Of a DNA stretch of 64,000 bases, positions 7,040 to 25,992 are shown piece after piece. The position numbers and the translations under genes are program-made. This DNA is from a virus (taxonomy: Duplodnaviria; Heunggongvirae; Uroviricota; Caudoviricetes): IMG/VR virus record IMGVR_UViG_3300029610_000240. One strand, 5' to 3'. The notes under the pieces were generated by a model. It made no database searches. It was not told the DNA's origin and saw only the letters and a list, made by a program, of their open reading frames with translations. Position 1 is the first letter of the stretch, and the number at the start of each line of letters is the position of its first letter.

Positions 7040-7495
7040 ATTGTAGCTGTATAACTTGCAAACAGCTACATACTTGTGCTATAATAAAAGTATGAAAAGA
7101 GAATATAAAGTTACAAAAACAACAACATCACTGATCAAGTATCATTTCGTTTTTTGCCCAAAGTATCGAAGAAAGATATTTCTGATCCATGGGGTAGAAG
7201 AACGAATGAAAGAATTGACAAAGGAACAGTGTGAAAAGGATCAGATCGAGATTCTTGAGATGAAATGTGATGTGGATCATGTATATTTATATGTAAGAGC
7301 ATATCCACAGACAACAATAACAAGGATCATGGGGAGCATCAGAGAGTACACATCAAAAATATTAAGAAAGGAATTTAAAGAACTATCAAAAATGAGTTCT
7401 CTTTGGACTAGATCTTATTTTGTTAGCACAGAAGATTTTATTAGTCTGGATACGATCAAATGGTATGTTGAGCAGCAAAAAACTAGAGGGTAAGT
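7040..7495 (+). mobile_element. IS200-like remnant: left-end hairpin plus tnpA, with no room for a right end
   Basis: Imperfect palindrome 'tagctgtataacttgcaaacagcta' at 7043-7069. tnpA stops 20 nt before the RBS of the next gene, so there is no downstream subterminal hairpin. Confidence 0.5.
7092..7493 (+). CDS. tnpA: IS200/IS605-family Y1 (HuH) transposase TnpA, probably degenerate (HuH motif reads H-V-Y)
   Basis: 'YHFVFCPKYRRKIF' is the TnpA N-terminal signature. 'DVDHVYLYV' replaces the canonical HxH. 'YFVST...IKWYVEQQ' is the catalytic-Tyr region. ATG 7092 is preferred over the TTG at 7056. A 'tgctataat' -10-like element lies just upstream. Confidence 0.7.
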   Translation: MKREYKVTKTTTSLIKYHFVFCPKYRRKIFLIHGVEERMKELTKEQCEKDQIEILEMKCDVDHVYLYVRAYPQTTITRIMGSIREYTSKILRKEFKELSKMSSLWTRSYFVSTEDFISLDTIKWYVEQQKTRG

Positions 7496-7512: not shown

Positions 7513-10500
7513 ATGAGTAAGGTAAAAAAAGGAAAACGAGTGGCAGCAGCTGCGATGGCTGTTGCGTTATCTATGGCTACGGTAACGACTGGTGTGTTAC
7601 CGAACACAACGGTTCATGTACATGCAGAAGAAGATGGAAGTGTATATAAAAAGATTGCTGATTCAAGCGTAGATGGATTCTATTACGAGCAAAATGTATG
7701 GGGATATGTACAATGTACAACAGACAAAACATTGGAATATTCTTCTTATGATGAAATGATAAAAAAACTTTCAGCAATTACAAAAAAAATCGTTCAGGAA
7801 AATGCTTATGATCGGTATAGTTTTAGTTTTCCTATAAAGATCAGTTCTGCTGCAAAGGATGAAAGATTTGAAAATGGTCAAGTTAATAAAGATTTAAAAA
7901 ATGAAATATATAAAGAAACAGGAGATCCAAAGGGTGGACATACAATGATTGCTATGGGCGGTGGATCGACACAAATTTATGATATAAGTTATTCTGAGTC
8001 TGAAAAAGCATATGTAGGTGAAGTATCTGGAAGTGGTGGATATGGAGAAAAACGAAATAGATATCAAGAAGCTACAAAGAAATTAGATGAAGTTATCAGA
8101 TCATTGAATCTTGATGGAAAATCTGATTATGATAAATTTAAAGCAGTCACGAATTGGATTGTTTCAAATGTGCGATATGACGATGATAATGAAACAAAAT
8201 ATCAGCACGACCTAACAGGAGCTGTCTTAGATGGATTGGCCGTTTGCGATGGATACGCAGGAACTTTTTATTATATGGCAAATGCAGTTGGATTAAATGC
8301 TTTGTTTGAGGATGGTATAGATAATGATAATAGAATTCGACATGCATGGAATCTGGTACAGATTGATGGAATTTACTATTATGCAGATCCTACAAATGCA
8401 TATTTTAAAGAGGATGGAGAACCAGGAAGTGAAGTATTATATGGACAGAAACACTTTTTTTCTCTGGACACACCAGACAGTACTACGATAGAAGATACCT
8501 ACAAAAATATATCACAGGATGACTACTTGAAAGAGCATTCTGTATGTAAAGGAAATCACAATCTTCGAGAAAATGGAGGAAAATCTGCTCAATGTACAAC
8601 ACCTGCTACAATACATTATGAATGTACAAACCCTGGCTGCCTATATGAATACGATGTAGAATCATCCCCAGCTTTAGGACATGCATGGGATGAAGGCAAA
8701 ATCACACAGGAACAATCCTGTGATAATCCAGAAATTACAACATATACATGTACCAGAAGTAATTGTAAAAAGAAGAAACAGGTAGAAACCAAACCCGCAC
8801 TTGGTCATACATGGGATGAAGGAAAGATCACAAAAGAAGCTACCTGTTCCGAAACAGGAGTTAAGACTTATACATGTAGTCGCTGCGGTGGAACAAAGAC
8901 TGAAGAGATCCCAAAAACAAAACATGACTATAAAGAGCATGTAGTAAAAGCTCCTACTTGCACAGAAAAAGGTGTTAGCTACTATGTATGTAAAAACTGT
9001 GGACTTACAACATCAAGACATCAGACACCTGCGACTGGGCATATCCATACAGAAGTACGGAATCAAAAGGATGCAACATATAAGGAAAATGGGTACACCG
9101 GAGATACTTACTGCAAAGATTGTGGTAAGAAACTGGAAACAGGAACCGTGATCCCAAAATTGGTAGAGAAAGAACATGATTACGGCGAATGGGTTCTTGA
9201 TCAGGCTCCAACGTGCAAAAAATACGGGGCAAGGCACAGAATCTGCAAGAACTGCGGAGATCGAGAGGTCGATGTGCTTGACAAGGTCGATCATTCATGG
9301 GAACTTGTCTCAACGACACCTGCTACATGCACCATTGGAGAAATCCAACATTATAAGTGCAGCGTTTGTGGAGAGACAAAAGATGTGACATTAAGTAATC
9401 CATTAGGAGAACATTCCTGGGATAACGGAAAGGTAACCAAAAAAGCTACCTGTACGGAAGATGGAGAAAAGACTTATACCTGTACTGTCTGCAATACGAC
9501 AAAAACGGAAGTCATTTCTGCTACCGGACATCAGCACAAAGAAGTGAGAAACGCAAAGAAAGCTACCTGTACCGAAGATGGTTATACAGGAGATACTTAC
9601 TGCAAGGACTGTGGAGAAAAGCTAGAAACAGGTTCTGTGATCAAAAAGCTTGGTCACACATGGGATAACGGAGTGATTACAAAAGAAGCAACAGAAACCG
9701 AGGAAGGTGTTAAGACTTATACTTGTAAAACATGTGGAGAAACAAAGACAGAGAGTATTCCAGTCACATCTCACCACTGGGATCAGGGAACGATCACAAA
9801 GAAAGCTACTTGTACAGAAAACGGAGAAAAGACGTACCGTTGTACGGATGCAGACTGTGATAAAACATATGTAGAGACAATTCCTGCCACTGGACATCAG
9901 CATACAGAAGTCCGTGATAAAAAGGATGCCACATGCGAGAAAGATGGTTACAGCGGAGATACCTACTGTAAAGATTGTGGTCAGCTGATCAGTAAAGGAG
10001 CAATAGTGAAAGCCACTGGACATTCTTGGGATGATGGAAAAGTGACCGAAGCAGCGACCTGCAAGAAAGAGGGAATAAAAACCTACACCTGCAAGAACTG
10101 TGGAGAGACAAAGACAGAATCCATTCCAAAAACAGAACATCAGTGGGATAACGGTAAGGTTACAAAAGAAGCTACCTGCAAAGAAGAAGGAAGCAAAACC
10201 TATACCTGCAGCATTTGTGGTGACACGAAAACAGAAGTAATTCCAAAGAAAGACCACACATGGGATGAAGGAAAGGTAACCAAAAAAGCAACCTGTACCG
10301 AAGATGGCTTAAAAGTCTACACTTGTAAGTCTTGTGGAGAAACCAAAGAAGAGGCACTAAAAGCAACAGGGCATCAGTATACAGAACTCCGCAATGAAAA
10401 GAAAGCGACCTGTACGGAAGAAGGTTACACAGGAGATACTTACTGTACCGACTGCGGCGAGCTGATCAAAAAAGGTTCTGCGACAGAAAAAGCCAATCAT

Positions 10501-11232
10501 AACTGGGAAGTAACCAGTGAAGAGAAAGCTACTTGTGAAAAAGATGGTTCTAAGACATACACTTGTGCAGACTGCAAAGAAACAAAGACAGAAACGATTC
10601 CTGCCACTGGACACAAGTTTAGTGATTGGCAGACCGTAACAACACAAAGTGTCTTTACTGGCGGGGTACAGAAACGAATTTGTAGTATCTGTGGAAAAGA
10701 AGAAACCAGAAATGTGGGCAATCAGCTGAAAGCTACGATCAAAACCAATGCATCATCCTTAAAGCTGAAACGCAAACAGGCAACAAAGAAATTTGTGGTA
10801 AGTGGACTTGCAGCGGGAGATTCTGTAAAATCTTGGACAAGCAGCAATCAGAAGATTGTAAAAGTTTTCGGAAGTAGAAACGGAGCGTGTACGATCAAAG
10901 CAGGAAATAAGACTGGAAAAGCTAAGATCACGATTACACTGGTATCAGGACTGAAAAAGACGATCAATGTAACCGTTCAGAAAAATGCGGTTGCTTGTAC
11001 ATCCATTAAAAATGTACCGAAAAAAATAACATTAAATGCGAAAAAATCTTATCAGTTGAAACCAGTGATCAATCCGATCACATGCACTTACAAAGCGATA
11101 TATAAGACTTCTAACAAAAAGATCGTAAAAGTGACATCAAGAGGAAAAATCACAGCTGTAAAGAAAGGGAAAGCAAAGATCACAGTTATGGTAGGTAAAA
11201 AGAAGTTTGTATGCACTGTAACAATCAAATAA
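7513..11232 (+). CDS. Secreted multidomain surface protein: signal peptide, transglutaminase-like cysteine-protease core, about 17 alternating Cys-rich zinc-ribbon-like repeats, and two C-terminal Big_2 Ig-like domains
   Basis: Signal peptide 'MSKVKKGKRVAAAAMAVALSMATVTTG'. TGase-like Cys-His-Asp context 'GLAVCDGYAGTFYYMANAVG ... HAWNLVQIDGIYYYADPTNAY'. Repeats 'GHxWDxGKVTKxATCTEDGxKTYTCxxCGxTKTExIPATGH' alternate with 'HxEVRNxKxATCTExGYTGDTYCKDCGxxLxxG'. Big_2-like 'VVSGLAAGDSVKSWTSSNQKIVKVFGSRNGACTIKAGNKTGKAKITI'. Confidence 0.7.
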   Translation: MSKVKKGKRVAAAAMAVALSMATVTTGVLPNTTVHVHAEEDGSVYKKIADSSVDGFYYEQNVWGYVQCTTDKTLEYSSYDEMIKKLSAITKKIVQENAYDRYSFSFPIKISSAAKDERFENGQVNKDLKNEIYKETGDPKGGHTMIAMGGGSTQIYDISYSESEKAYVGEVSGSGGYGEKRNRYQEATKKLDEVIRSLNLDGKSDYDKFKAVTNWIVSNVRYDDDNETKYQHDLTGAVLDGLAVCDGYAGTFYYMANAVGLNALFEDGIDNDNRIRHAWNLVQIDGIYYYADPTNAYFKEDGEPGSEVLYGQKHFFSLDTPDSTTIEDTYKNISQDDYLKEHSVCKGNHNLRENGGKSAQCTTPATIHYECTNPGCLYEYDVESSPALGHAWDEGKITQEQSCDNPEITTYTCTRSNCKKKKQVETKPALGHTWDEGKITKEATCSETGVKTYTCSRCGGTKTEEIPKTKHDYKEHVVKAPTCTEKGVSYYVCKNCGLTTSRHQTPATGHIHTEVRNQKDATYKENGYTGDTYCKDCGKKLETGTVIPKLVEKEHDYGEWVLDQAPTCKKYGARHRICKNCGDREVDVLDKVDHSWELVSTTPATCTIGEIQHYKCSVCGETKDVTLSNPLGEHSWDNGKVTKKATCTEDGEKTYTCTVCNTTKTEVISATGHQHKEVRNAKKATCTEDGYTGDTYCKDCGEKLETGSVIKKLGHTWDNGVITKEATETEEGVKTYTCKTCGETKTESIPVTSHHWDQGTITKKATCTENGEKTYRCTDADCDKTYVETIPATGHQHTEVRDKKDATCEKDGYSGDTYCKDCGQLISKGAIVKATGHSWDDGKVTEAATCKKEGIKTYTCKNCGETKTESIPKTEHQWDNGKVTKEATCKEEGSKTYTCSICGDTKTEVIPKKDHTWDEGKVTKKATCTEDGLKVYTCKSCGETKEEALKATGHQYTELRNEKKATCTEEGYTGDTYCTDCGELIKKGSATEKANHNWEVTSEEKATCEKDGSKTYTCADCKETKTETIPATGHKFSDWQTVTTQSVFTGGVQKRICSICGKEETRNVGNQLKATIKTNASSLKLKRKQATKKFVVSGLAAGDSVKSWTSSNQKIVKVFGSRNGACTIKAGNKTGKAKITITLVSGLKKTINVTVQKNAVACTSIKNVPKKITLNAKKSYQLKPVINPITCTYKAIYKTSNKKIVKVTSRGKITAVKKGKAKITVMVGKKKFVCTVTIK
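8640..10700 (+). repeat. Intragenic tandem repeat array encoding two alternating ~45-aa Cys-rich module types, a likely recombination hotspot
   Basis: Recurring nucleotide blocks such as 'ggttatacaggagatacttactgcaaggactgtgg' and 'aaagctacctgtaccgaagatgg' appear at intervals of roughly 135-270 nt. Confidence 0.75.
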
Positions 11233-16359: not shown

Positions 16360-16843
16360 AAATACTTTGATTGGTATAGAATTCTTTTTGTGGTTGTGAT
16401 AATATAATATGAAAGTTGTGTTTGCGAACGCAAGACACTGGCAACAAGGCAAAAAGTTGTAGTCCATACAGAGGACTTCCGAAATCTGTAACGTAATACA
16501 CATTTTTAGAATGTGTGATCCCGGTGACTGGGCGATAAGTCATAACCCATATGGAGGGTTTCCAAAATCCATAACTGAATAGCTCATCTACCATTTACTA
16601 GGAAGAAAGAGAAACCCTACCTGTGTTATTATATAGGTAGGGTTTGTTATAAATTTGTGGCGAAAACCCACACGCTTGCGTGTGGGATGAAAGCTACATT
16701 TCACTTGACATATACATAGATTAAATATATATATTAAAATACAGAAAGAAAACAGACCATGAGTAAGAGCAACTATGATATAAACACGCATACAACACAA
16801 AATAATGCTACACAATATCATTCAAGTCGTGGAGGAAAAAATA

Positions 16844-17023
16844 ATGGCACAAACTAAAAGTGACAATGTACAAATAAATATTTCTATTCCTACTGGATGG
16901 AAAACAGAACTTGAAAATCTTGCTCGTATCTATTCTGTTGAAGAAGGAAAAACCATCACTTTTCTTGACTTAATGCGTAGAGGTATTCAGGAAAAATATC
17001 AATTAGGAGAAAAAAGGCAGTGA
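16844..17023 (+). CDS. Small protein (59 aa) inside the IS, possibly a ribbon-helix-helix-like DNA binder
   Basis: RBS 'ggaggaaaaaataatg'. Protein 'MAQTKSDNVQINISIPTGWKTELENLARIYSVEEGKTITFLDLMRRGIQEKYQLGEKRQ'. Fold guess only. Confidence 0.4.
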   Translation: MAQTKSDNVQINISIPTGWKTELENLARIYSVEEGKTITFLDLMRRGIQEKYQLGEKRQ

Positions 17024-17433
17024 GTGAGGAACAATATCATAGTGCTTCACATTGTAAATATTTGATACAGTATCATATCATTTGGTGTCCCAAGTTCAGA
17101 TTTTCAGTATTACAAGGAAATGTCGATATCATTCTTAAACAGATATTACAGAAAATTTGTAATGATTATAAATACAAGATCAAAGCACTCGAAGTGATGC
17201 CAGATCATATACATATTTTCATAGATGTTCCGCAGACAGTTGCTCCTTGTGATGTTGTAAGAACTCTCAAAAGTATCAGTGCTATCGAATTATTTAAAGT
17301 ATTTCCAAAATTAAAACAGTTCTATGCGAAATGCGGAGTATTATGGCCAAGAGGATACTTTGTATCTACTGTCGGACATATAAGCGAAGCTACAGTAATT
17401 AAGTATATTGAGGAGCAGAAAAATGATAAGTGA
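17020..17433 (+). CDS. tnpA: IS200/IS605 Y1 HuH transposase TnpA (intact)
   Basis: 'YLIQYHIIWCPKFR', HuH 'MPDHIHIFI', and catalytic Tyr in 'GYFVSTVGHISEATVIKYIEEQ'. Confidence 0.85.
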   Translation: MSEEQYHSASHCKYLIQYHIIWCPKFRFSVLQGNVDIILKQILQKICNDYKYKIKALEVMPDHIHIFIDVPQTVAPCDVVRTLKSISAIELFKVFPKLKQFYAKCGVLWPRGYFVSTVGHISEATVIKYIEEQKNDK

Positions 17434-19036
17434 TAAAGAATATAAAAAACTTTTAAAACAATTTCATAAACTTTCTGACAGGCATATCTTGGTTGTAGAA
17501 ACCGATATGCCATCTTCTGATGTACAAAAGGTTGTGATTCTTTCTGATAAGATCAGAAAAGCAGGTAATGAGCTTGTTGGTCTTATGAGAAAGAATTATG
17601 ACCAACTTATGCGTACTAAAAAATATCGCAAGTTGCTAAAACTCTATGGTTCTACCAACGATAAAAAGAAACACAGAGATCTAGCAAATCAGCTCAATGA
17701 AATGCAAAAACAGTACAATGTCACATGGGATCATTGCAGAAACGCTATGATACATATAGGTAAGAAATATAGTATTGATGCCGTATTTGCCCTTACAAAA
17801 GCTGAAGATATATGGCGTGGTATTGAAAAATGTCTTTATAACAATGGTAAAACTATTCATTTTTCTAAATATGGTGAGTTGCCTTGTATCAGGGCAAAAC
17901 AGATAAATCGTGGCATTTCAATGTCTGTTAAAGATAATGAATTAAAATTCAAATTAAAGGGAAATGTATTTGGGATACAGGTTAAAGATAGATTTCAAAC
18001 AGATGAAGTTTGTGCGGTTTTAGAATATTTATCAAGATCAGAGATCATAAATGATAAAGCAATAAATAAATTTTTAGATAAAGCATACTGTATTGATACA
18101 TACAGACCTTGCTATGCTACTCTTGTACCTAAATTTATTCGTGGAAAATATAGGGTGTATTTGCATCTTACTATTGAAGGTAAGGCGAAACCTAAATATG
18201 ATAGGTTTGGTAATCCAAGACATAAGTTTGGCAAAGGTATTATAGGCGCAGATATTGGTACACAGACTGTTGCGTATACATCAAATACTGAGGTGGGCTT
18301 GAAAAATCTTTCAGAGCGTGGTAACAGTATTCAGACTTCTGAAAGAAGAGAACGTCTGCTTTACCGTGCGATGGACAGGTCAAGACGTGCAACTGATCCG
18401 CAAAACTATAATGATGATGGTACTGTTAAAAAAGGCCGCAAAACTTGGAAATATTCTAATCATTATAAAAAGCTAAAAGCTAAACACTCTGAACTATGTC
18501 GTATCAATGCTATAAACAGACAGCTTGCAATAAATGAAGACGCTAACCATTTAAGAAGTCTTGGAGATGTATTTATCACGGAACCTAAAAATGCAAGTAA
18601 ACTTATGAAACGAACTAAAGATACTACGGTCAATAGTAAAGGTAAGTTTCATAAGAAAAAGCGTTTTGGAAAATCCATAAAGAACAGATGTCCTTCTGGG
18701 TTTCAAACTACTGTAGAGCGGAAATTTAAGGTATCAGGTGGTATATATATTGAAGTACCTAATAATTACAGAGCAAGTCAATATGACCATACAGCAGATG
18801 ATTATATCAAGAAAAAGCTGTCTGATAGAATATATAAACTTACTGACGGAACATTGGTACAAAGAGATTGGTATTCATCATTCTTATTATACTGTTACGA
18901 TTACAGAACTAAAGATATAGATAAAAACAAATGTATTTCTGAATTTGATAAGTGTTACAACAAAGAAAAAGCTCTGATCGAATGGATCAAGGCTAACAAG
19001 ATCAAAATATTAAATAGCGGAATTAAGATATCGTAA
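17423..19036 (+). CDS. tnpB: TnpB-like RuvC-fold protein (IS605 OrfB family), unusually long, with the canonical CxxC...CxxC zinc finger replaced
   Basis: RuvC-I 'GADIGTQTVAYTS' and RuvC-II-like 'DVFITEPKN'. 'VPNNYRASQYDHTADDY' sits where TnpB has '...yTSQ.C..CG'. RuvC-III-like 'QRDWYSSFLL' (compare RDxNAAxNI). RBS 'gaggag' before ATG 17423. Confidence 0.6.
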   Translation: MISDKEYKKLLKQFHKLSDRHILVVETDMPSSDVQKVVILSDKIRKAGNELVGLMRKNYDQLMRTKKYRKLLKLYGSTNDKKKHRDLANQLNEMQKQYNVTWDHCRNAMIHIGKKYSIDAVFALTKAEDIWRGIEKCLYNNGKTIHFSKYGELPCIRAKQINRGISMSVKDNELKFKLKGNVFGIQVKDRFQTDEVCAVLEYLSRSEIINDKAINKFLDKAYCIDTYRPCYATLVPKFIRGKYRVYLHLTIEGKAKPKYDRFGNPRHKFGKGIIGADIGTQTVAYTSNTEVGLKNLSERGNSIQTSERRERLLYRAMDRSRRATDPQNYNDDGTVKKGRKTWKYSNHYKKLKAKHSELCRINAINRQLAINEDANHLRSLGDVFITEPKNASKLMKRTKDTTVNSKGKFHKKKRFGKSIKNRCPSGFQTTVERKFKVSGGIYIEVPNNYRASQYDHTADDYIKKKLSDRIYKLTDGTLVQRDWYSSFLLYCYDYRTKDIDKNKCISEFDKCYNKEKALIEWIKANKIKILNSGIKIS

Positions 19037-19391
19037 AACATATTTAGGAAGATTGACTATACTTCCTTACGAAAGTAGAAATTTACCGTCAATGTGGTCG
19101 TTGGACTGCTTGGTAATGAAAGCTCTGATTCAAATAGACTTACACTTGTAACTCCAAAGTCTGAAAATGATGTACGATTACAAGCTACACTTGATAATCA
19201 GAACCCCACGGGCTTGCCCGTGGGAGTAGTCAGATATAAAATTATATTTATTGTTTTGAATAAAAAATAAATTTTTTATCAAGATACACAAATGATATAA
19301 TTTGTGCTATAATTTATATCATGAGTTGTTGTATCAAAAGGCAACTTTTTATTAGAAAATTGGATATAAGGACAGTTTATGTCAAGGAAAT

Positions 19392-19424: not shown

Positions 19425-19460
19425 TCATTTTTTGCTTTAGTGGAGAAAGGAGACGTGCAA

Positions 19461-19772
19461 ATGAAACAGTATATCGGAATAAAGGTTGTTGCTGCGAGAC
19501 CAATGACAAGAGGTGACTATAATATCTTTCGAGGATGGCAGATTCCGGCAGACGAAGATCCTGCCGATGAAGGATATGTGATGAAATACGAGAATGGACA
19601 TGTGCAATGGTTGCCAAAGGATATGTTTGAGTCTGACTATAAAGAATATGACGAGAGTACCCTGCCGGCAACAGCTATTGGTATGGTAAGTTCAGATTAC
19701 AAAGAATGTTTTCAGGCAGAGTACAAGCAGCTCAGAATTCGTTATGAAAAATTGAAGAGAATGCGTCAATAA
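19461..19772 (+). CDS. hypothetical protein (about 103 aa)
   Basis: RBS 'gaaaggagac' before ATG 19461. No motif recognised. Its 3' end abuts the IscB element left end. Confidence 0.45.
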   Translation: MKQYIGIKVVAARPMTRGDYNIFRGWQIPADEDPADEGYVMKYENGHVQWLPKDMFESDYKEYDESTLPATAIGMVSSDYKECFQAEYKQLRIRYEKLKRMRQ

Positions 19773-19799
19773 CCCCGACCTACAGTAATAACTGTTGAG

Positions 19800-20044
19800 G
19801 TCGGAGCTTGTAAAAGCTCATATTGACTAGCCTAAGTTCTTCGAGAACTACGTTGTTTATGTTATCACACCTGCGAATGATACCATAGTTTGCAGCCTTG
19901 TGTAGGCTCTGTAAAAGTTCTGTGAGGTAGGAACGGTCAACCTAGTATGTTCGATCACGACAAGCATTTACAACATTGGCGAAGGGTAACAAACTTTCAA
20001 AAGAAAGGGACAGCACTTGAGAGTAGCTGTCAAAGGTAAAAACT
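19800..20044 (+). ncRNA. Putative IscB omega-RNA scaffold (structured, about 240 nt, immediately 5' of iscB)
   Basis: No ORF. Multiple local stems, for example 'gagcttgtaaaagctc' and 'ctgtaaaagttctgtgagg...'. The position matches the known IscB omega-RNA location overlapping the left end. Confidence 0.55.
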
Positions 20045-21319
20045 ATGAGAGTATTTGTATTCAATATGCGTGGCAGACCATTAATGCCATGCTCACAAAG
20101 AAAAGCCAGATTACTCCTAAGGGAAAATAAGGCTATGATTTATAAATATCATCCATTTACGATTCAGCTGACTTATACAACTGGAGAAACAAAGCAGGAC
20201 TGTCATATAGGTATAGACACAGGTTCTAAATATATAGGAGCTGCTGTCAGATCAGAGGATAAGGTTTTTTGGAAAGGCGAAATCGAGCTTCGACAGGATA
20301 TCAGGTCAAATCTTGATACGAAACGTATTTATCGCAGAAGCAGACGAAATCGTAAAACAAGATACCGAAAACCAAGGTTTTTAAATCGTAAGAGAAGAGA
20401 TGAATGGCTTCCACCTAGCTTGCAAAGCAGGATAAATCATACGTTTCATTGGATTGACACATTGAGTAGTTTGGTTCCAAACCCCATTCTTCACATAGAA
20501 GTCGGTAAGTTTGATGTAGCAAAGATGATAAATCCTGAAATCCATGGAGTTGACTATCAACATGGTCAGACATATGGTTTCTTCGATGAAAGGTATTTTG
20601 TTTTTGCAAGAGATAACTACACTTGTCAGTGCTGTGGAAAGTCAAAAAATAAGATTTTGAACACACATCATATCATCTACCGCAGTAATGGCGGAACAAA
20701 CAGAGTTGATAATCTTATTACAGTTTGCACAGATTGTCATACATCGCAGAATCACAGGAAAGGTGGAATATTCTATCAATGGCAGGAGCAGCATAAAAAG
20801 GTAAAACAATACAAAGAACCGCCGTTCATGAATACCTTACGTAAGAGGATATTTGTAGCGTATCCAGATGCTGAGATCACATATGGATCTGAAACAACAC
20901 CAAAACGTAAGGCGATGAAATTGGATAAGACGCACTATAATGATGCGATTGTCATTAGTGGTATCAATGAAATTAAAGAAAATCCTGAAGAATGGTTACT
21001 GATAAAACAATTCCGCAAAAAGAAACGCTCTTTACACGAGGCTACCGCCCGTAAGGGAAGAAAAAAGCCAAACAGAAATCAGACGCGTAACAGTAAGAAT
21101 ACGCCTTATTATAAAGGATTTTATCTTAACGATAAGGTTTCAGTTTTTGGAAAGAGTGGATATATTACAGGATTTACGAGCAATGCGGCATATATAAAAG
21201 ATGAGAACAATGACTATATTACTCTGCCAAACAAAACCTATAAACAGGTCAGCATCAATAAAATGAAGTTGGAATGTCATAACAACAATTGGCAGTACAT
21301 AATAAAAAATGCTGTGTAA
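20045..21319 (+). CDS. iscB: IscB, an RNA-guided nuclease ancestral to Cas9 (PLMP domain, split RuvC, HNH)
   Basis: PLMP motif 'RGRPLMPCS'. RuvC-I 'IGIDTGSKYIGAAV'. HNH 'CQCCGKSKNKILNTHHIIYRSNGGTNRVDNLITVCTDCH'. Length 424 aa. Confidence 0.85.
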   Translation: MRVFVFNMRGRPLMPCSQRKARLLLRENKAMIYKYHPFTIQLTYTTGETKQDCHIGIDTGSKYIGAAVRSEDKVFWKGEIELRQDIRSNLDTKRIYRRSRRNRKTRYRKPRFLNRKRRDEWLPPSLQSRINHTFHWIDTLSSLVPNPILHIEVGKFDVAKMINPEIHGVDYQHGQTYGFFDERYFVFARDNYTCQCCGKSKNKILNTHHIIYRSNGGTNRVDNLITVCTDCHTSQNHRKGGIFYQWQEQHKKVKQYKEPPFMNTLRKRIFVAYPDAEITYGSETTPKRKAMKLDKTHYNDAIVISGINEIKENPEEWLLIKQFRKKKRSLHEATARKGRKKPNRNQTRNSKNTPYYKGFYLNDKVSVFGKSGYITGFTSNAAYIKDENNDYITLPNKTYKQVSINKMKLECHNNNWQYIIKNAV

Positions 21320-21386
21320 TCCGCAATTCATCCCACCACCTATAGAGGTGGGGGACTTCTTGCTCACGGCGTGTTAAATAATTTCC

Positions 21387-21878
21387 ATGAAAGAGAGGTT
21401 TTTTATGCAAAAAAGATATCAATACTGTATGTCAGGTATGTTTGCTGCGACAGATCAAAATTATTACGAAATTAACATCCCATCTCCGCATACATATGAG
21501 ACGGAAGAAGAAGCTATGGCAGATGGAGCTTTTGGATATCGTTTTGTTTTATTGCCTGGTGGTAAAGGACCACAAGTAGTTATATTTGAAGGATCTGGCT
21601 TTCGTCTGGTTTGTGATGGAAAAGAAAATTATATAAAAGACTGGGTTGAAGGAGATATTGTCGGAATATATGATTTCGATGAATTTACAAAAGCTGGTGG
21701 CTATATCCGCTTACTAAATCCAGAACTGGGAGACGATGTTTGTATTATTGAAGATTCAGACTTTTTGGACACAGATAAAACGTTTGCGGATATTTTCCCT
21801 AATATGGAACATCTAAAGCTGTATTATATCGATAATCTTGCATATTCCATTGATGAAATAACAGAAGGAGATAAATAA
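21387..21878 (+). CDS. hypothetical protein (163 aa)
   Basis: ORF only. Confidence 0.4.
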   Translation: MKERFFMQKRYQYCMSGMFAATDQNYYEINIPSPHTYETEEEAMADGAFGYRFVLLPGGKGPQVVIFEGSGFRLVCDGKENYIKDWVEGDIVGIYDFDEFTKAGGYIRLLNPELGDDVCIIEDSDFLDTDKTFADIFPNMEHLKLYYIDNLAYSIDEITEGDK

Positions 21879-22399
21879 TGGCAAAAACAGAAGAAACATT
21901 GATCATTGAAGATGTCTTATATCAAAACCTGTTTGGATCCAACCCATGCCTTGCAAGAGAGTATGGAACAAAGGAAGTTACCGTAACTCTTCTCAAGGAG
22001 AAAAAAGTAAAGGAAATCGTTGATTTTCTAAGCTATAACGCAAAAAAAGATGAATTTCGATGCTATGAGATTAAAGTCAGCATGGCCGATTTTAAGAGTA
22101 AGGCTGCCAAAACATGGATTGGAAATTATAATTATTTGGTTATTCCAAGAGAGTTATATTTAAAGCAATCCTTGTATGAATGGAAAGAACAGATTCCATA
22201 TTACGTGGGTATTATCGTTGTAAACGTAGAGCGTAGATCGAAATGGGTTGCTAAAAGACCTTCACCAATGGAAGTATCTGCAGGAATGAAGTTTATGTTA
22301 AGACAGAGTCTAATCAGAACTTTATTTTATCAAAATGATAAATTAAAAAAGAATAGTGCTGCTAAAATAGAGCAGATCTGTCAAGAGACAGAAAAGTAA
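21878..22399 (+). CDS. hypothetical protein, possible PD-(D/E)xK nuclease fold
   Basis: 'VDFLSYNAKKDEFRCYEIKVSMADFK' contains a D...E-I-K arrangement. Weak evidence. Confidence 0.35.
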   Translation: MAKTEETLIIEDVLYQNLFGSNPCLAREYGTKEVTVTLLKEKKVKEIVDFLSYNAKKDEFRCYEIKVSMADFKSKAAKTWIGNYNYLVIPRELYLKQSLYEWKEQIPYYVGIIVVNVERRSKWVAKRPSPMEVSAGMKFMLRQSLIRTLFYQNDKLKKNSAAKIEQICQETEK

Positions 22400-22434
22400 C
22401 TGTTAAGTATCAAATAAAGAAAGGAATTTAAATT

Positions 22435-23001
22435 ATGGAAAAAATCTTGAATTTACAGAGAGGATGGAAATCCAGACTATGGTTTGGAGAAAAAGCATTT
22501 GCATTATGTTTTGTGATATTTACAGCATTTACTGGTTTAGTAAGTGTTAATGCAGGACCTGGAGCCTTGTATGAATCTCATACATTTCGTACAATTTTAA
22601 ATGTCATGTTGACTGCTGCTGCATATGTAATCGCAATTGATCTTGTGTATAACATGATGTTTAATTTTTCCCAACGTTTTTATCAGTCAATCGTCATAGA
22701 AGAAGCAATCGCTATCATTCCATTTATCGTTGGATTGATTATTTTATATGTATTTTCCTGCGGAAAAACAGTGGCAGATTTAATGTATTTTAAGACATAT
22801 GAGCATTTATGGGTGACATTTGTAATTGCTGCATGTATGATTCATGTGGTTTGCAGCTTTGTATTTCGTATGATCCGAAAGGATTACTATAAAAAACATC
22901 CAGAAGAAGAACCACATTATGGCACCATGTATGTATATGATCTTAATAAAAGTAAGAATGATGAAGGAGGAGATGTAGATGAAAAAAGGGAAAGTGATTA
23001 G
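22435..23001 (+). CDS. Integral membrane protein (4-5 TM helices)
   Basis: Hydrophobic segments throughout. RBS 'aaaggaatttaaattatg'. Confidence 0.5.
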   Translation: MEKILNLQRGWKSRLWFGEKAFALCFVIFTAFTGLVSVNAGPGALYESHTFRTILNVMLTAAAYVIAIDLVYNMMFNFSQRFYQSIVIEEAIAIIPFIVGLIILYVFSCGKTVADLMYFKTYEHLWVTFVIAACMIHVVCSFVFRMIRKDYYKKHPEEEPHYGTMYVYDLNKSKNDEGGDVDEKRESD

Positions 23002-23446
23002 AGTAGAAAATGATATTGTAACGATCGGGATGAACAATGGTTCCATTAAAGAAGTTCGAAGATGTGATCTTGGATTTGATCCTGTTCTTGGAGATTTGGT
23101 GGAAATTTTCGAGAATGAAGATCAGATCATTGTGACAAAGGCAAAAAAAGAGCCTGAGAATCACAACGATGCTGGAATCAATATTAACATGACAAACAGT
23201 ATTAACAATGCATCTGATGTGGCAGCAGGAAATGGAAAGAAAGTAGTGAATAAAGTAGCTTACTGCTTACTGGCACTTTTCCTTGGTGGTTTCGGTGCTC
23301 ATAAGTTTTACAGTGGAAAGACTGGGATGGGAATCCTCTATATTGTGTTTTGTTGGACAGCGATTCCAAGTTTTGTTGCATGGGTAGAATTGATCATTGC
23401 TGTATTTACCAAAAAAGCCGATGCAAACGGAAACATTGTTATGTGA
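22979..23446 (+). CDS. TM2-domain protein (soluble N-terminal domain plus C-terminal TM2 double-helix module)
   Basis: 'AYCLLALFLGGFGAHKFYSGKTGMGILYIVFCWTAIPSFVAWVEL' matches the TM2 'GxHRFYxG' signature. Confidence 0.7.
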   Translation: MKKGKVIRVENDIVTIGMNNGSIKEVRRCDLGFDPVLGDLVEIFENEDQIIVTKAKKEPENHNDAGININMTNSINNASDVAAGNGKKVVNKVAYCLLALFLGGFGAHKFYSGKTGMGILYIVFCWTAIPSFVAWVELIIAVFTKKADANGNIVM

Positions 23447-23449
23447 CAT

Positions 23450-23600
23450 CCTCTCCCATCTATAGAGGTGGGAGCTTCCCTAACCTCGGCAGGTTTGGTT
23501 CTCGTTCGATAGCACCAATGTGCTAAGCTTAAGCGAGCTAACCCCGTGTGTCCCACGGTTGTATTATGTGAAATTGTGGTTATGCAGTTACTATCCGCAT
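23450..23600 (-). ncRNA. Putative TnpB omega-RNA (reRNA) region overlapping the tnpB 3' end and the right-end hairpin
   Basis: Structured, ORF-free segment immediately 3' of tnpB on the minus strand. Local palindromes 'gcttaagc' and 'ccgtgtgtcccacgg'. Placement follows the known TnpB reRNA organisation. Confidence 0.45.
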
Positions 23601-24698
23601 TCCCTCATTTCTGATATTGATCGCTGCATTTACATCTCTGTCGTGATGGATTCCACACTGCGGACAATCCCACTGCCTGAGTGCAAGATCCTTTGTTTTC
23701 GCATTCTTGTAACCACAGGCAGAACACATCTGACTGCTTGCAAAAAATCTGTCCACTTTCACAAGTTTTTTCCCTTGTTCCTCAAGTTTATACTTTAGAA
23801 AGGCTGTGAACATTCCCCATCCATTATCCGAAACGGATTTTCCCAATTTCAACGACCGAGACATTGCTTTCATATCCAGATCCTCTATACATACACAATC
23901 ATAGGCATTGGTTATCTGTCTTGACTGCTTATGCAGAAAATCTTTTCGCTGATTGGAAACTTTTTCGTGAAGTTTGGCTACCTTGATTCTCTGTTTCCTG
24001 CGATTGTTCGAACCTTTCTGCATCTTGGAAAGTCTGCGTTGTTCTCTTGCTAATCTTTTCTCTGCGTTCCGGTAATATCCTGGATATGCCGGTTCATTGC
24101 CATTACTGTCACGATATAATCCGTGCATGGAAAAGTCCAGACCTAAAAAACTGTGCATCTCCTTTTCTGGTATCTGATCTTCATACTCAAAAAGGATACT
24201 TGCATAGTATCTTCCGCCTGGTGTCTGGCTGATCGTCACTGATTTCAACCTGTATCCCTTTGGAACAGATCTGTGCTGCTTTAATCGGACTTGTCCGATC
24301 TTTGGCAGTTTCAGATACCCATCCGATATGGTGATGTTGCCATTGATACATATGGTTGAATAGCTGTTTTTATGATTCTTTTTTGATTTGAACCTTGGAA
24401 ATCCTGTTTTCGGCCGTTTGAAAAAGTTCTGAAATGCTGTATCAAGGTGTCGGAGTGATTGCTGTAAGGATATACTATCGACTTCCCGCAAAAATGCGTA
24501 TTCTTCCGTTTTCTTCATTTCAGCCATTTCTTTCGCACAGACAGTATATGTTATATTTGTCTTGTTCTTCTTATACTGCCTGATCCTTCGATTAAGCCAA
24601 TGGTTGTACACCATTCTGACACAGCCGAAAGTCCTGGCAAACAGAATCATCTGCTCATTATTGGGATATATTCTGAATTTATATGCTCTGTTTGCCAT
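23580..24698 (-). CDS. tnpB: TnpB RNA-guided endonuclease (IS605 OrfB), with intact RuvC and zinc finger
   Basis: 'AYKFRIYPNNEQMILFARTFGCVRMVYNHWL' is the canonical TnpB N-terminus. RuvC-I 'LGLDFSMHGL'. Zinc finger plus RuvC-III 'CSACGYKNAKTKDLALRQWDCPQCGIHHDRDVNAAINI'. Confidence 0.9.
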   Translation of the reverse strand: MANRAYKFRIYPNNEQMILFARTFGCVRMVYNHWLNRRIRQYKKNKTNITYTVCAKEMAEMKKTEEYAFLREVDSISLQQSLRHLDTAFQNFFKRPKTGFPRFKSKKNHKNSYSTICINGNITISDGYLKLPKIGQVRLKQHRSVPKGYRLKSVTISQTPGGRYYASILFEYEDQIPEKEMHSFLGLDFSMHGLYRDSNGNEPAYPGYYRNAEKRLAREQRRLSKMQKGSNNRRKQRIKVAKLHEKVSNQRKDFLHKQSRQITNAYDCVCIEDLDMKAMSRSLKLGKSVSDNGWGMFTAFLKYKLEEQGKKLVKVDRFFASSQMCSACGYKNAKTKDLALRQWDCPQCGIHHDRDVNAAINIRNEGMRIVTA

Positions 24699-25220
24699 GG
24701 TATCACTCCCTTAGTTTTCTGCTTGTGTTTTTGATCATTTTAACAATTTATTATATTTTATCATTTCTTTATTATTCTTTTAAATATATTATACTATGAT
24801 CAGAATACAATATCAAGTGCTTAACAGACGCAATTCATCTCTCACCTTAGAGGTCGGAGTCTTCTTGCTGGAAGAAGATAAAGTATAAGAATAAAAGCCC
24901 CAAAATCTTAACGGATAACGGGGCTTATTTTTTTGTTTAGAAGTTGGAATAAATTATAAATAATAATTTAAAATATGTAATATTCCCATATAATTATAAT
25001 GTTATTCTTGAAATATGTTCAAATAAAGCTAAAAAATATGGGAGCGTTACATATTTTTGCTTGTAATTTGTCAAGGTTATTGTATAATTAAATTATAACG
25101 AACGTTCGTACTAATTAATTTTGAAATGGAACAAAATGTGATTAGAAAGGTAACATTTTTACATGAATTTGGAAAAACAAAAAGAAAATTTCAAGAATCA
25201 TAGGGCAATATTTAAAGATC

Positions 25221-25451
25221 TTGGAAATAAGGAAGGAGTTGATTTTAATGTTTGAAACTATATCTCACTTTGTTTTGGGTGTTGTTGCAATAGCTATTTT
25301 GCATATAGCTCTCACTTATGGTATGAGCGATAAAACAAACGACAATCCAAAGATAAGATTCTTAAAAACTGTGTGTTTTGTGGGTGCTTTTGTGGGTGCA
25401 AATATAATGATCATATTTTTCATTTATATTATTGTTAGGAGTCCATTATGA
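25221..25451 (+). CDS. Small membrane protein (76 aa, 2 TM)
   Basis: RBS 'aaggaaggagttgattttaatg' with hydrophobic content. Confidence 0.4.
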   Translation: MEIRKELILMFETISHFVLGVVAIAILHIALTYGMSDKTNDNPKIRFLKTVCFVGAFVGANIMIIFFIYIIVRSPL

Positions 25452-25992
25452 TATTGATTTTGCAAAAGGAGGAACAAGAATGAGAATGGAAACTTTTTAC
25501 AAAATAATACTTGGAATAAGAGAGTTTCCCGGCTGTGCAGACTTGTTGTTAACTTATGATGATCAAGAAATTTTGCATCAATTATATAATCAGAATCACA
25601 TTGGAATACACATTATAGGTAGAAATTATAGTTGCCGCCGGTAAAATAGAGAAAATTATGTGAAGGAGAACGTTTATGACAATAGCACAGCAGATTGCAC
25701 ATGACTTTTTAGCGAGTATAGAAAAAGTATGTGTCGAAAATAAAATAGATATTGGGTCATTAGAAACAAGTATTATTTATGACAAAGGAGCACAAGCAGG
25801 AATAGCAGTAAAAGATGCACAAGCAGGAATAATTATTGCATCTCTATTTTATGCCTTTTATTTTTCCCATATAAGAGAAATCCTTTTTATGATCTGCAAA
25901 AAGATGGAATAGATATGATGGAAAAGGATTTCGGAAGTTTTTTGGACAAGTAGATCATATAGGCAGATATAAACGAATTGATCACAAGTTAA

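Follow-up and report, generated by a model that had tools for sequence, protein, structure and literature searches.

The 64,000-nucleotide window studied here (IMG/VR record IMGVR_UViG_3300029610_000240, Caudoviricetes) is part of a human-gut phage of about 200 kb and carries two RNA-guided nuclease genes of the IscB and TnpB families. Each gene lies inside its own insertion sequence, and the two insertion sequences are very probably non-autonomous members of the IS200/IS605 family that inserted independently, one with iscB and the other with tnpB. They use one family of ends in the same orientation, and their nuclease genes are on opposite strands. The transposase-active (top) strand of both elements is the minus strand of the window, so that tnpB reads from left end to right end and iscB from right end to left end. 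This is the normal organisation of such elements and a published norm.

Empty sites and element boundaries

Several IMG/VR and ENA contigs represent the same phage at about 99.5% identity, and the IscB element, the TnpB element and a third, tnpA-bearing element show presence/absence polymorphism among them. Some contigs have all three elements, some have the IscB and tnpA elements and no TnpB element, and some have the IscB element alone; others combine the IscB and TnpB elements without the tnpA element or have neither the IscB nor the TnpB element. Because these different combinations coexist, the elements must have inserted independently. Of the scenarios put forward in an initial annotation of this locus, two separate insertions of related elements is the correct one.

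The empty-site comparison proposed in that annotation gives the exact boundaries of both elements from the near-identical phage contigs. For the TnpB element, position 23442 is joined directly to 24878 in contigs L084, L086, L087 and L107 (...cattgttat/ataaagtataag..., where the slash marks the junction). TTTAT is kept once at this empty site, and there is no target duplication. Contig L087 lacks the TnpB element and also the IscB element (19765–21373). The identical 1609-bp IscB element occurs in at least five sequence contexts, always starting with GTCAATAAC and always followed by TTAAA. Its boundaries are set by its absence from L087 together with the same start and the same TTAAA in four other contexts. 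The target-adjacent motif (TAM) of the IscB element is present at all five insertion contexts and in the empty site of L087.

Ends and transposase-active strand

Both elements have subterminal imperfect hairpins at both ends on one strand, with arms conserved across copies, and no terminal inverted repeats. Inspection of the sequence finds all four hairpins (A to D) where the initial annotation had placed them. Hairpins B and D have common flanks: CGCAATTCATC is present at only two places in the window, 21322 and 24829, and CTTCTTGCT occurs at 21356 and 24861, plus one unrelated site. A and C do share a flank as claimed, although the string first given for it was slightly mis-written; it reads GGT(C/G)GGAGCTT, at 19799 and 23467. 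The gene calls were right as well, with tnpB on the minus and iscB on the plus strand, separated by four open reading frames (ORFs), the last of which encodes a TM2-domain protein (Table 1). So was the assignment of both elements to one end family with the same end orientation.

The order of features along the minus strand is TTTAT, 18 nt, hairpin D, tnpB, hairpin C and a further 10 nt (..GGATGTCAC/) for the TnpB element, and TTTAA, 19 nt, hairpin B, and at the other end hairpin A and a further 10 nt (..GGTTATTGAC/) for the IscB element. In IS608, 19 nt separate the left hairpin from the target on its 5′ side, which is not part of the element, and cleavage on the right takes place within the element, 10 nt 3′ of the right hairpin (PMC3201880). 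When the window is read on the plus strand, as in the initial annotation, this end geometry is inverted. Folded as single-stranded DNA, hairpins A and B beat all 200 shuffles; C and D are weaker in the window copy (z of –0.85 and –2.06). The fit of the end geometry to IS608, the target motif, the independent copies and the covariation of the target described below together define the minus strand as the top strand of both elements, with A and C as right ends and B and D as left ends.

The comparison set consists of 80 independent bacterial tnpB loci (L113–L192), mostly from Lachnospiraceae and other Clostridia. In 48 of these loci the left end (AGCAAGAAG-N-hairpin-GATGAATTGCG) precedes tnpB in the tnpB sense, and in none is it antisense. 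The right end (...GAGGATGTCAC/) lies downstream of tnpB in the sense direction in 57 and antisense in one, and both ends are found at the expected spacing in 34. A Y1 tnpA gene is located between the left end and tnpB, on the same strand, in 33 of the 80, and these tnpA-bearing loci are the autonomous form of the end family. Phage and plasmid copies (L001–L003) show the same layout, and a comparison with such homologous TnpB copies in other contexts, also suggested earlier, finds that they end at the same bases as the TnpB element of the window. Since the same left and right ends recur beside tnpB in dozens of independent loci, a chance assignment of the ends is unlikely.

About 50 loci have TTTAT or TTTAA beside the left end. 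The final base of this target covaries with the base that follows AAGAAG immediately 5′ of the left hairpin: 26 loci combine TTTAA with T and 23 combine TTTAT with A, with a single exception. The covarying position is consistent with a DNA guide that would read the cleavage site, as in IS608. This covariation explains the single-base difference between left end B (..GGGGGACTTCTTGCT; window position 21355) and left end D (..CGGAGTCTTCTTGCT; 24860).

Direction of the nuclease genes

The initial annotation placed tnpB on the wrong strand for its ends and called this atypical, an error that arose because the direction of iscB was taken to define left and right. Once the minus strand is recognised as the top strand defined by the transposase, tnpB is canonical, and its orientation relative to the ends is the same in the independent copies (L001–L003 and the 80 bacterial loci), which is the observation that the initial annotation had named as refuting its reading. 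It is iscB that runs the other way. From AGCAAGAAG to GATGAATTGCG, the left end of the IscB element differs at two to three of about 43 positions from those of tnpA-tnpB elements, L147 being an example (compared by eye). Within its own end family, iscB therefore runs against the direction of tnpA and tnpB.

Meers et al. (2023; preprint 10.1101/2023.03.14.532601) describe that the IscB scaffold comes from the right end with the guide 5′-adjacent and outside the element, that transcription of the IscB guide RNA must enter from outside the element, and that, within one genome, the ends of IscB and TnpB elements closely resemble each other and are served by a common TnpA. Members without a transposase gene are a recognised class of the IS200/IS605 family (10.1101/2023.03.14.532601). 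Because the IscB guide RNA is built from the right end, iscB reads from the right end to the left end. The guide corresponds to the right-end flank in both systems, and this flank is the 3′ end of the TnpB RNA and the 5′ end of the IscB RNA; hence iscB and tnpB are on opposite strands when the ends have the same orientation. Nuclease genes on opposite strands are thus expected for IscB and TnpB elements that share ends, and the apparent anomaly is removed.

Nucleases and predicted guide RNAs

The IscB protein scores 371.5 bits against NCBIfam guided_IscB (cutoff 175) and matches solved IscB structures. The region upstream of the gene matches the Rfam model of the HEARO RNA (RF02033) with 112.4 bits, compared with a gathering score of 83, and model positions 1–211 align to 19765–19994 on the plus strand. 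Model position 1 coincides with the element boundary at 19765, the first base common to all copies of the IscB element, and the predicted guide, whose length is taken from the literature, is directly 5′ of it. In the empty-site contig L087, AAATTGAAGAGAATGC followed by TTAAA is intact. The ORF upstream of the IscB RNA (19440–19772) is on the same strand, and a promoter-like site is found at 19285–19313. Most other IscB loci from viral contigs have different ends and gave no extra test of the end family.

The TnpB protein scores 441.3 bits against NCBIfam IS200_TnpB (cutoff 425) and matches the ISDra2 TnpB structures at 3e-83. Its closest relatives, 85–87% identical, are from Anaerobutyricum, Anaerostipes, Blautia and other gut Clostridia. 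A consensus fold of the TnpB guide RNA, built on 31 copies, has 22 pairs, 16 of them with compensatory changes; no Rfam match was obtained for this RNA. The flanks beyond ...GTCAC/ are unrelated between copies of the TnpB element. On the tnpB strand, the predicted guide lies directly 3′ of the right-end boundary, and the empty sites there read TTTAT/ATAACAATGTTTCC. The promoter-like site inside the element is the best consensus match between 19200 and 25100 (11 of 12 positions), and is a consensus match only. For both elements, the predicted guide and the target motif match the empty-site alleles.

A related TnpB element in another phage record (L001, MT835477, about 1490–1520) has no right-end hairpin (GTGACATCCTCCCC--AACCTCGG) and is probably immobilised.

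Proposed mechanism and mobilisation

No gene for a Y1 (HUH) TnpA is found inside either element. Both elements inserted 3′ of TTTAA or TTTAT on the minus strand without target duplication. Following the established model, a TnpA supplied in trans would excise and reinsert this strand. The TnpB RNA would run off the 3′ end of tnpB through the right end, while the IscB RNA would start outside the right end and enter the element ahead of iscB. The nucleases could then cut the vacated site, and recombination would restore the element. The same type of Y1 TnpA can probably move both elements in trans, since they have a common left-end family and a related right end. As judged from sequence, the ORFs, ends and guide-RNA regions of both elements are intact.

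Several points weigh against the reading of two mobile insertions served by common machinery. Mobilisation of both elements by one TnpA is no more than likely, and guide-RNA production and nuclease activity (RNA-guided cleavage beside the target motif) are presumed by analogy. The left ends B and D are strongly alike, but the right ends A and C are alike only in their hairpin arms, the AAGCT motif and the 10-nt spacing. The exact left end of the TnpB element was not found elsewhere in viral contigs, only in the same phage. The two TnpA proteins of the window are 26–31% identical to the TnpA of the autonomous relatives, and the window contains no close cognate TnpA; a pattern-limited search did not find one on the contigs of this phage either (80 viral matches, none in the lineage). 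Finally, the IscB site is not a clean insertion and has a 129-bp deletion compared with the only empty-site contig, L087, which is described below.

Alternative explanations

The initial annotation also considered a single composite transposon that captured the four genes between the elements as cargo between IscB-type and TnpB-type ends. The ends are in direct orientation, and in principle the two outermost ones, D on the left-end side (24877) and A on the right-end side (19765), would be usable together. The proposed B-to-D span, however, is bounded by left ends on both sides, and these do not make a valid pair. The four genes occupy the same position in L087, from which both elements are missing, and in L084, L086 and L107, from which the TnpB element is missing, and the IscB element moves alone in at least four other contexts. 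They are also phage-like in composition, with a G+C content of 34.5% compared with 33.3% for the window and 38–40% for the two elements, they match PHROG phage protein families, and one of them, a 173-aa gene, is found only in the phage lineage of the window. The four genes are resident phage DNA, and a composite is highly improbable; the empty sites refute it. An inversion that flipped tnpB relative to its ends has even less to recommend it and can practically be dismissed. It is favoured only by the earlier expectation that tnpB follows the direction of iscB, and it is contradicted by the empty sites and by the conserved order of left end, tnpB and right end in L001–L003 and in the 34 bacterial loci with both ends, where none of the left ends is antisense. 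The location of the promoter-like site and of the guide-RNA structure on the tnpB strand argues in the same direction.

With two independent insertions as the preferred reading, the source of the transposase has to be considered. The window encodes two intact Y1 transposases (17020–17433 and 7092–7493), and all three elements are polymorphic in the same phage population, so one of these phage enzymes, rather than a host-encoded cognate TnpA, might mobilise them. This is unlikely. The element that encodes the TnpA at 17020 has other hairpins (CCCACACGC.. and CCCACGGGC..), and neither enzyme is close to the TnpA encoded inside autonomous elements that bear the ends of the window elements. Given this distant similarity, and since the pattern-limited search found no cognate TnpA on the phage contigs, the host is probably the supplier. 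It is also quite improbable that one or both elements have lost the ability to transpose and persist as immobile relics or domesticated nucleases. Such a state would agree with the lack of a cognate TnpA in cis, with the loss of the right-end hairpin in the related copy L001 and with the occurrence of the exact TnpB element in one context only, for which reason the recent mobility of this element rests on its presence or absence at one site. It does not agree with the intact ORFs, ends and guide-RNA regions, with the polymorphism among near-identical contigs or with the recurrence of the identical IscB element in different contexts.

Deletion beside the IscB element

Between the two window flanks (19764/19765 and 21373/21374), contig L087 (494–622) has 124 nt and a second TTAAA, and the 129-bp deletion extends exactly between these TTAAA copies, from the one to the other. 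It shortens the protein with the crAss001_48 domain that is encoded upstream: L087 has the full match (64 bits, model positions 1–60), while the window retains a fragment (23 bits, model positions 1–25). Every IscB-bearing contig has the deletion at the window site. An intermediate that keeps the 124 nt and has the IscB element inserted at the first TTAAA (CGGCGTG/TTAAAAAATGTG) was not found among 23 contigs, and the excised donor joint of the IscB element (GAATGC/TTAAATAATTTCC) was not found in viral contigs. We tentatively suggest, as a somewhat doubtful possibility, that the machinery of the elements made the deletion, either through TnpA cutting at another target site close by or through repair after cleavage by IscB, and that the elements could be RNA-guided gene drives during co-infection. 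A gene-drive role is conceivable because the three elements segregate as presence/absence alleles and the guides match the empty alleles. If the deletion is self-made, such elements would erode phage genes as well as interrupt them.

Features of the locus and the surrounding window

Table 1. Coordinates of the two insertion sequences, their parts and other features of the window
Feature	Position	Strand	Remarks
IscB insertion sequence	19765..21373 (1609 bp)	transposase-active strand minus	right end 19765, left end 21373; non-autonomous
Hairpin A	19775-19781 / 19798-19804		CCGACCT / AGGTCGG
Hairpin B	21333-21341 / 21346-21354		CCACCACCT / AGGTGGGGG
Left end of IscB element	21320..21373	minus	hairpin B 21333-21354; cleavage site to hairpin foot 19 nt
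IscB target/TAM	21374..21378	minus	TTTAA (plus strand TTAAA); outside element
iscB gene	20045..21319	plus	424 aa; Pfam RRXRR (2.9e-61) and HNH
IscB guide-RNA scaffold (HEARO RNA)	19765..20044	plus	built from right end; includes hairpin A 19775-19804
Predicted IscB guide, 16 nt	19749..19764	plus	AAATTGAAGAGAATGC; outside element, at 3′ end of upstream phage ORF
TnpB insertion sequence	23443..24877 (1435 bp)	minus	left end 24877, right end 23443; non-autonomous
Hairpin C	23453-23461 / 23466-23474		CTCCCATCT / AGGTGGGAG
Hairpin D	24840-24847 / 24851-24858		TCTCACCT / AGGTCGGA
Left end of TnpB element	24821..24877	minus	hairpin D 24840-24858; cleavage site to hairpin foot 18 nt
TnpB target/TAM	24878..24882	minus	TTTAT (plus strand ATAAA); kept in empty sites
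tnpB gene	23580..24698	minus	372 aa; Pfam OrfB_IS605, Cas12f1-like_TNB, HTH_OrfB_IS605
Right end and TnpB guide-RNA scaffold	23443..23672	minus	structured core 23443-23561; hairpin C 10 nt from boundary
Predicted TnpB guide, 16 nt	23427..23442	minus	ATAACAATGTTTCCGT; outside element, antisense to TM2 gene 3′ end
Promoter-like site upstream of tnpB	24788..24816	minus	TTGATA-17-TATAAT; inside element
Four native phage genes, not cargo	21387..23446	plus	collinear in L087; also in L084 and L086 without TnpB element
Individual genes of this segment	21387 (or 21405)-21878; 21878-22399; 22435-23001; 22979-23446	plus	last gene with TM2 domain
RAGATH-30 RNA matches	32817, 36299, 50281, 51138, 51469, 53988, 55601, 56267	plus	RF03055

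The TnpB insertion (23440–23446) alters the end of the TM2 gene from ..GTT ATA TAA to ..GTT ATG TGA, with a new last codon and a new stop. The element also separates this gene from a terminator-like hairpin followed by a run of T (24890–24935), which was identified by eye and is not listed by the terminator scan. With the TM2 gene cut off from this hairpin, transcription of the operon would continue into tnpB in the antisense direction. The gene content immediately beyond the TnpB element on its downstream side (25227–25844) differs between otherwise near-identical contigs, with extra segments of 0.7, 1.2 and 3.7 kb (L084 7916–11664; L086 7916–8658 and 9273–10497). The extra segment in L084 and L087 holds a different tnpB on the plus strand, which encodes 385 aa and is 44% identical. 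When phage and plasmid records were searched for near-identical sequence, only homologues of the tnpB element matched, and no close relative of the phage was among them.

The third IS200/IS605-type element is at about 16652–19231 on the plus strand. It has different hairpins and is absent from L084, L006 and L101. It consists of tnpA (17020–17433) and an ORF of 537/542 aa in the position of tnpB, with about 1400 homologues annotated as 'hypothetical'. The 537-aa ORF has no match in Pfam, NCBIfam, a PDB sequence search or BLASTP against TnpB. Its AlphaFold model has a predicted local distance difference test (pLDDT) score of 40, and a profile comparison gives only 2% probability. A weak profile alignment is collinear with the C-terminal motifs of TnpB, with the zinc-finger cysteines replaced. 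The second tnpA (7092–7493, 133 aa, NCBIfam transpos_IS200) is solitary and of IS200 type. Directly downstream of it, 7513–11232 encodes a secreted-looking protein of 1239 aa with many Cys-rich repeats. Elsewhere in the window, the RAGATH-30 RNA (RF03055) has eight plus-strand matches above the gathering score over about 24 kb (Table 1).

Comparison with known elements

The locus is a clean natural example of an IscB/TnpB pair, with base-exact empty sites, target motifs, predicted guides and three independently segregating elements in a human-gut phage. It may be useful for testing homing or gene drive between phages during co-infection, and it could supply a compact IscB/TnpB pair whose target motifs are defined.

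At the level of single components, the IscB RNA resembles the HEARO RNA, or OgeuIscB guide RNA (RF02033; PDB entries 7xht and 7utn), in being a structured RNA directly upstream of iscB on the same strand; the full Rfam model is matched, and differences are only at the sequence level. ISDra2 TnpB (PDB entries 8bf8, 8h1j and 8exa) is homologous to the window TnpB over its full length (E 3e-83) with the same domain order. However, ISDra2 encodes its own tnpA, and its target motif is TTGAT rather than TTTAT.

Among whole elements, IS608 and IS605 of Helicobacter pylori likewise have subterminal hairpins without inverted repeats and insert 3′ of a short target without target duplication. The cleavage spacing of 19 nt and 10 nt in IS608 and the reading of its target by a guide sequence 5′ of the hairpin (PMC3201880) are as they appear in the window, and IS605 targets TTTAA (PMC13565253), like the IscB element. 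IS608 and IS605 carry tnpA in cis, whereas the two window elements are without it. ISGst1-5 of Geobacillus stearothermophilus (10.1101/2023.03.14.532601) are similar in this respect, being non-autonomous IS605-family elements with TnpB or IscB and with similar ends. One TnpA mobilises them in trans, and their guides target the vacated donor site (10.1101/2023.03.14.532601). Their IscB scaffold is derived from the right end and its 5′ guide from outside the element, and their TnpB guide RNA extends through the right end (10.1101/2023.03.14.532601). They are located in a bacterial chromosome rather than in a human-gut phage of about 200 kb, and have other ends and another motif than the TTTAA/TTTAT of the window elements, which are known from their sequence. 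The specific elements, the TTTAA and TTTAT motifs and the segregation in a gut phage are therefore new instances of an organisation that is already known.

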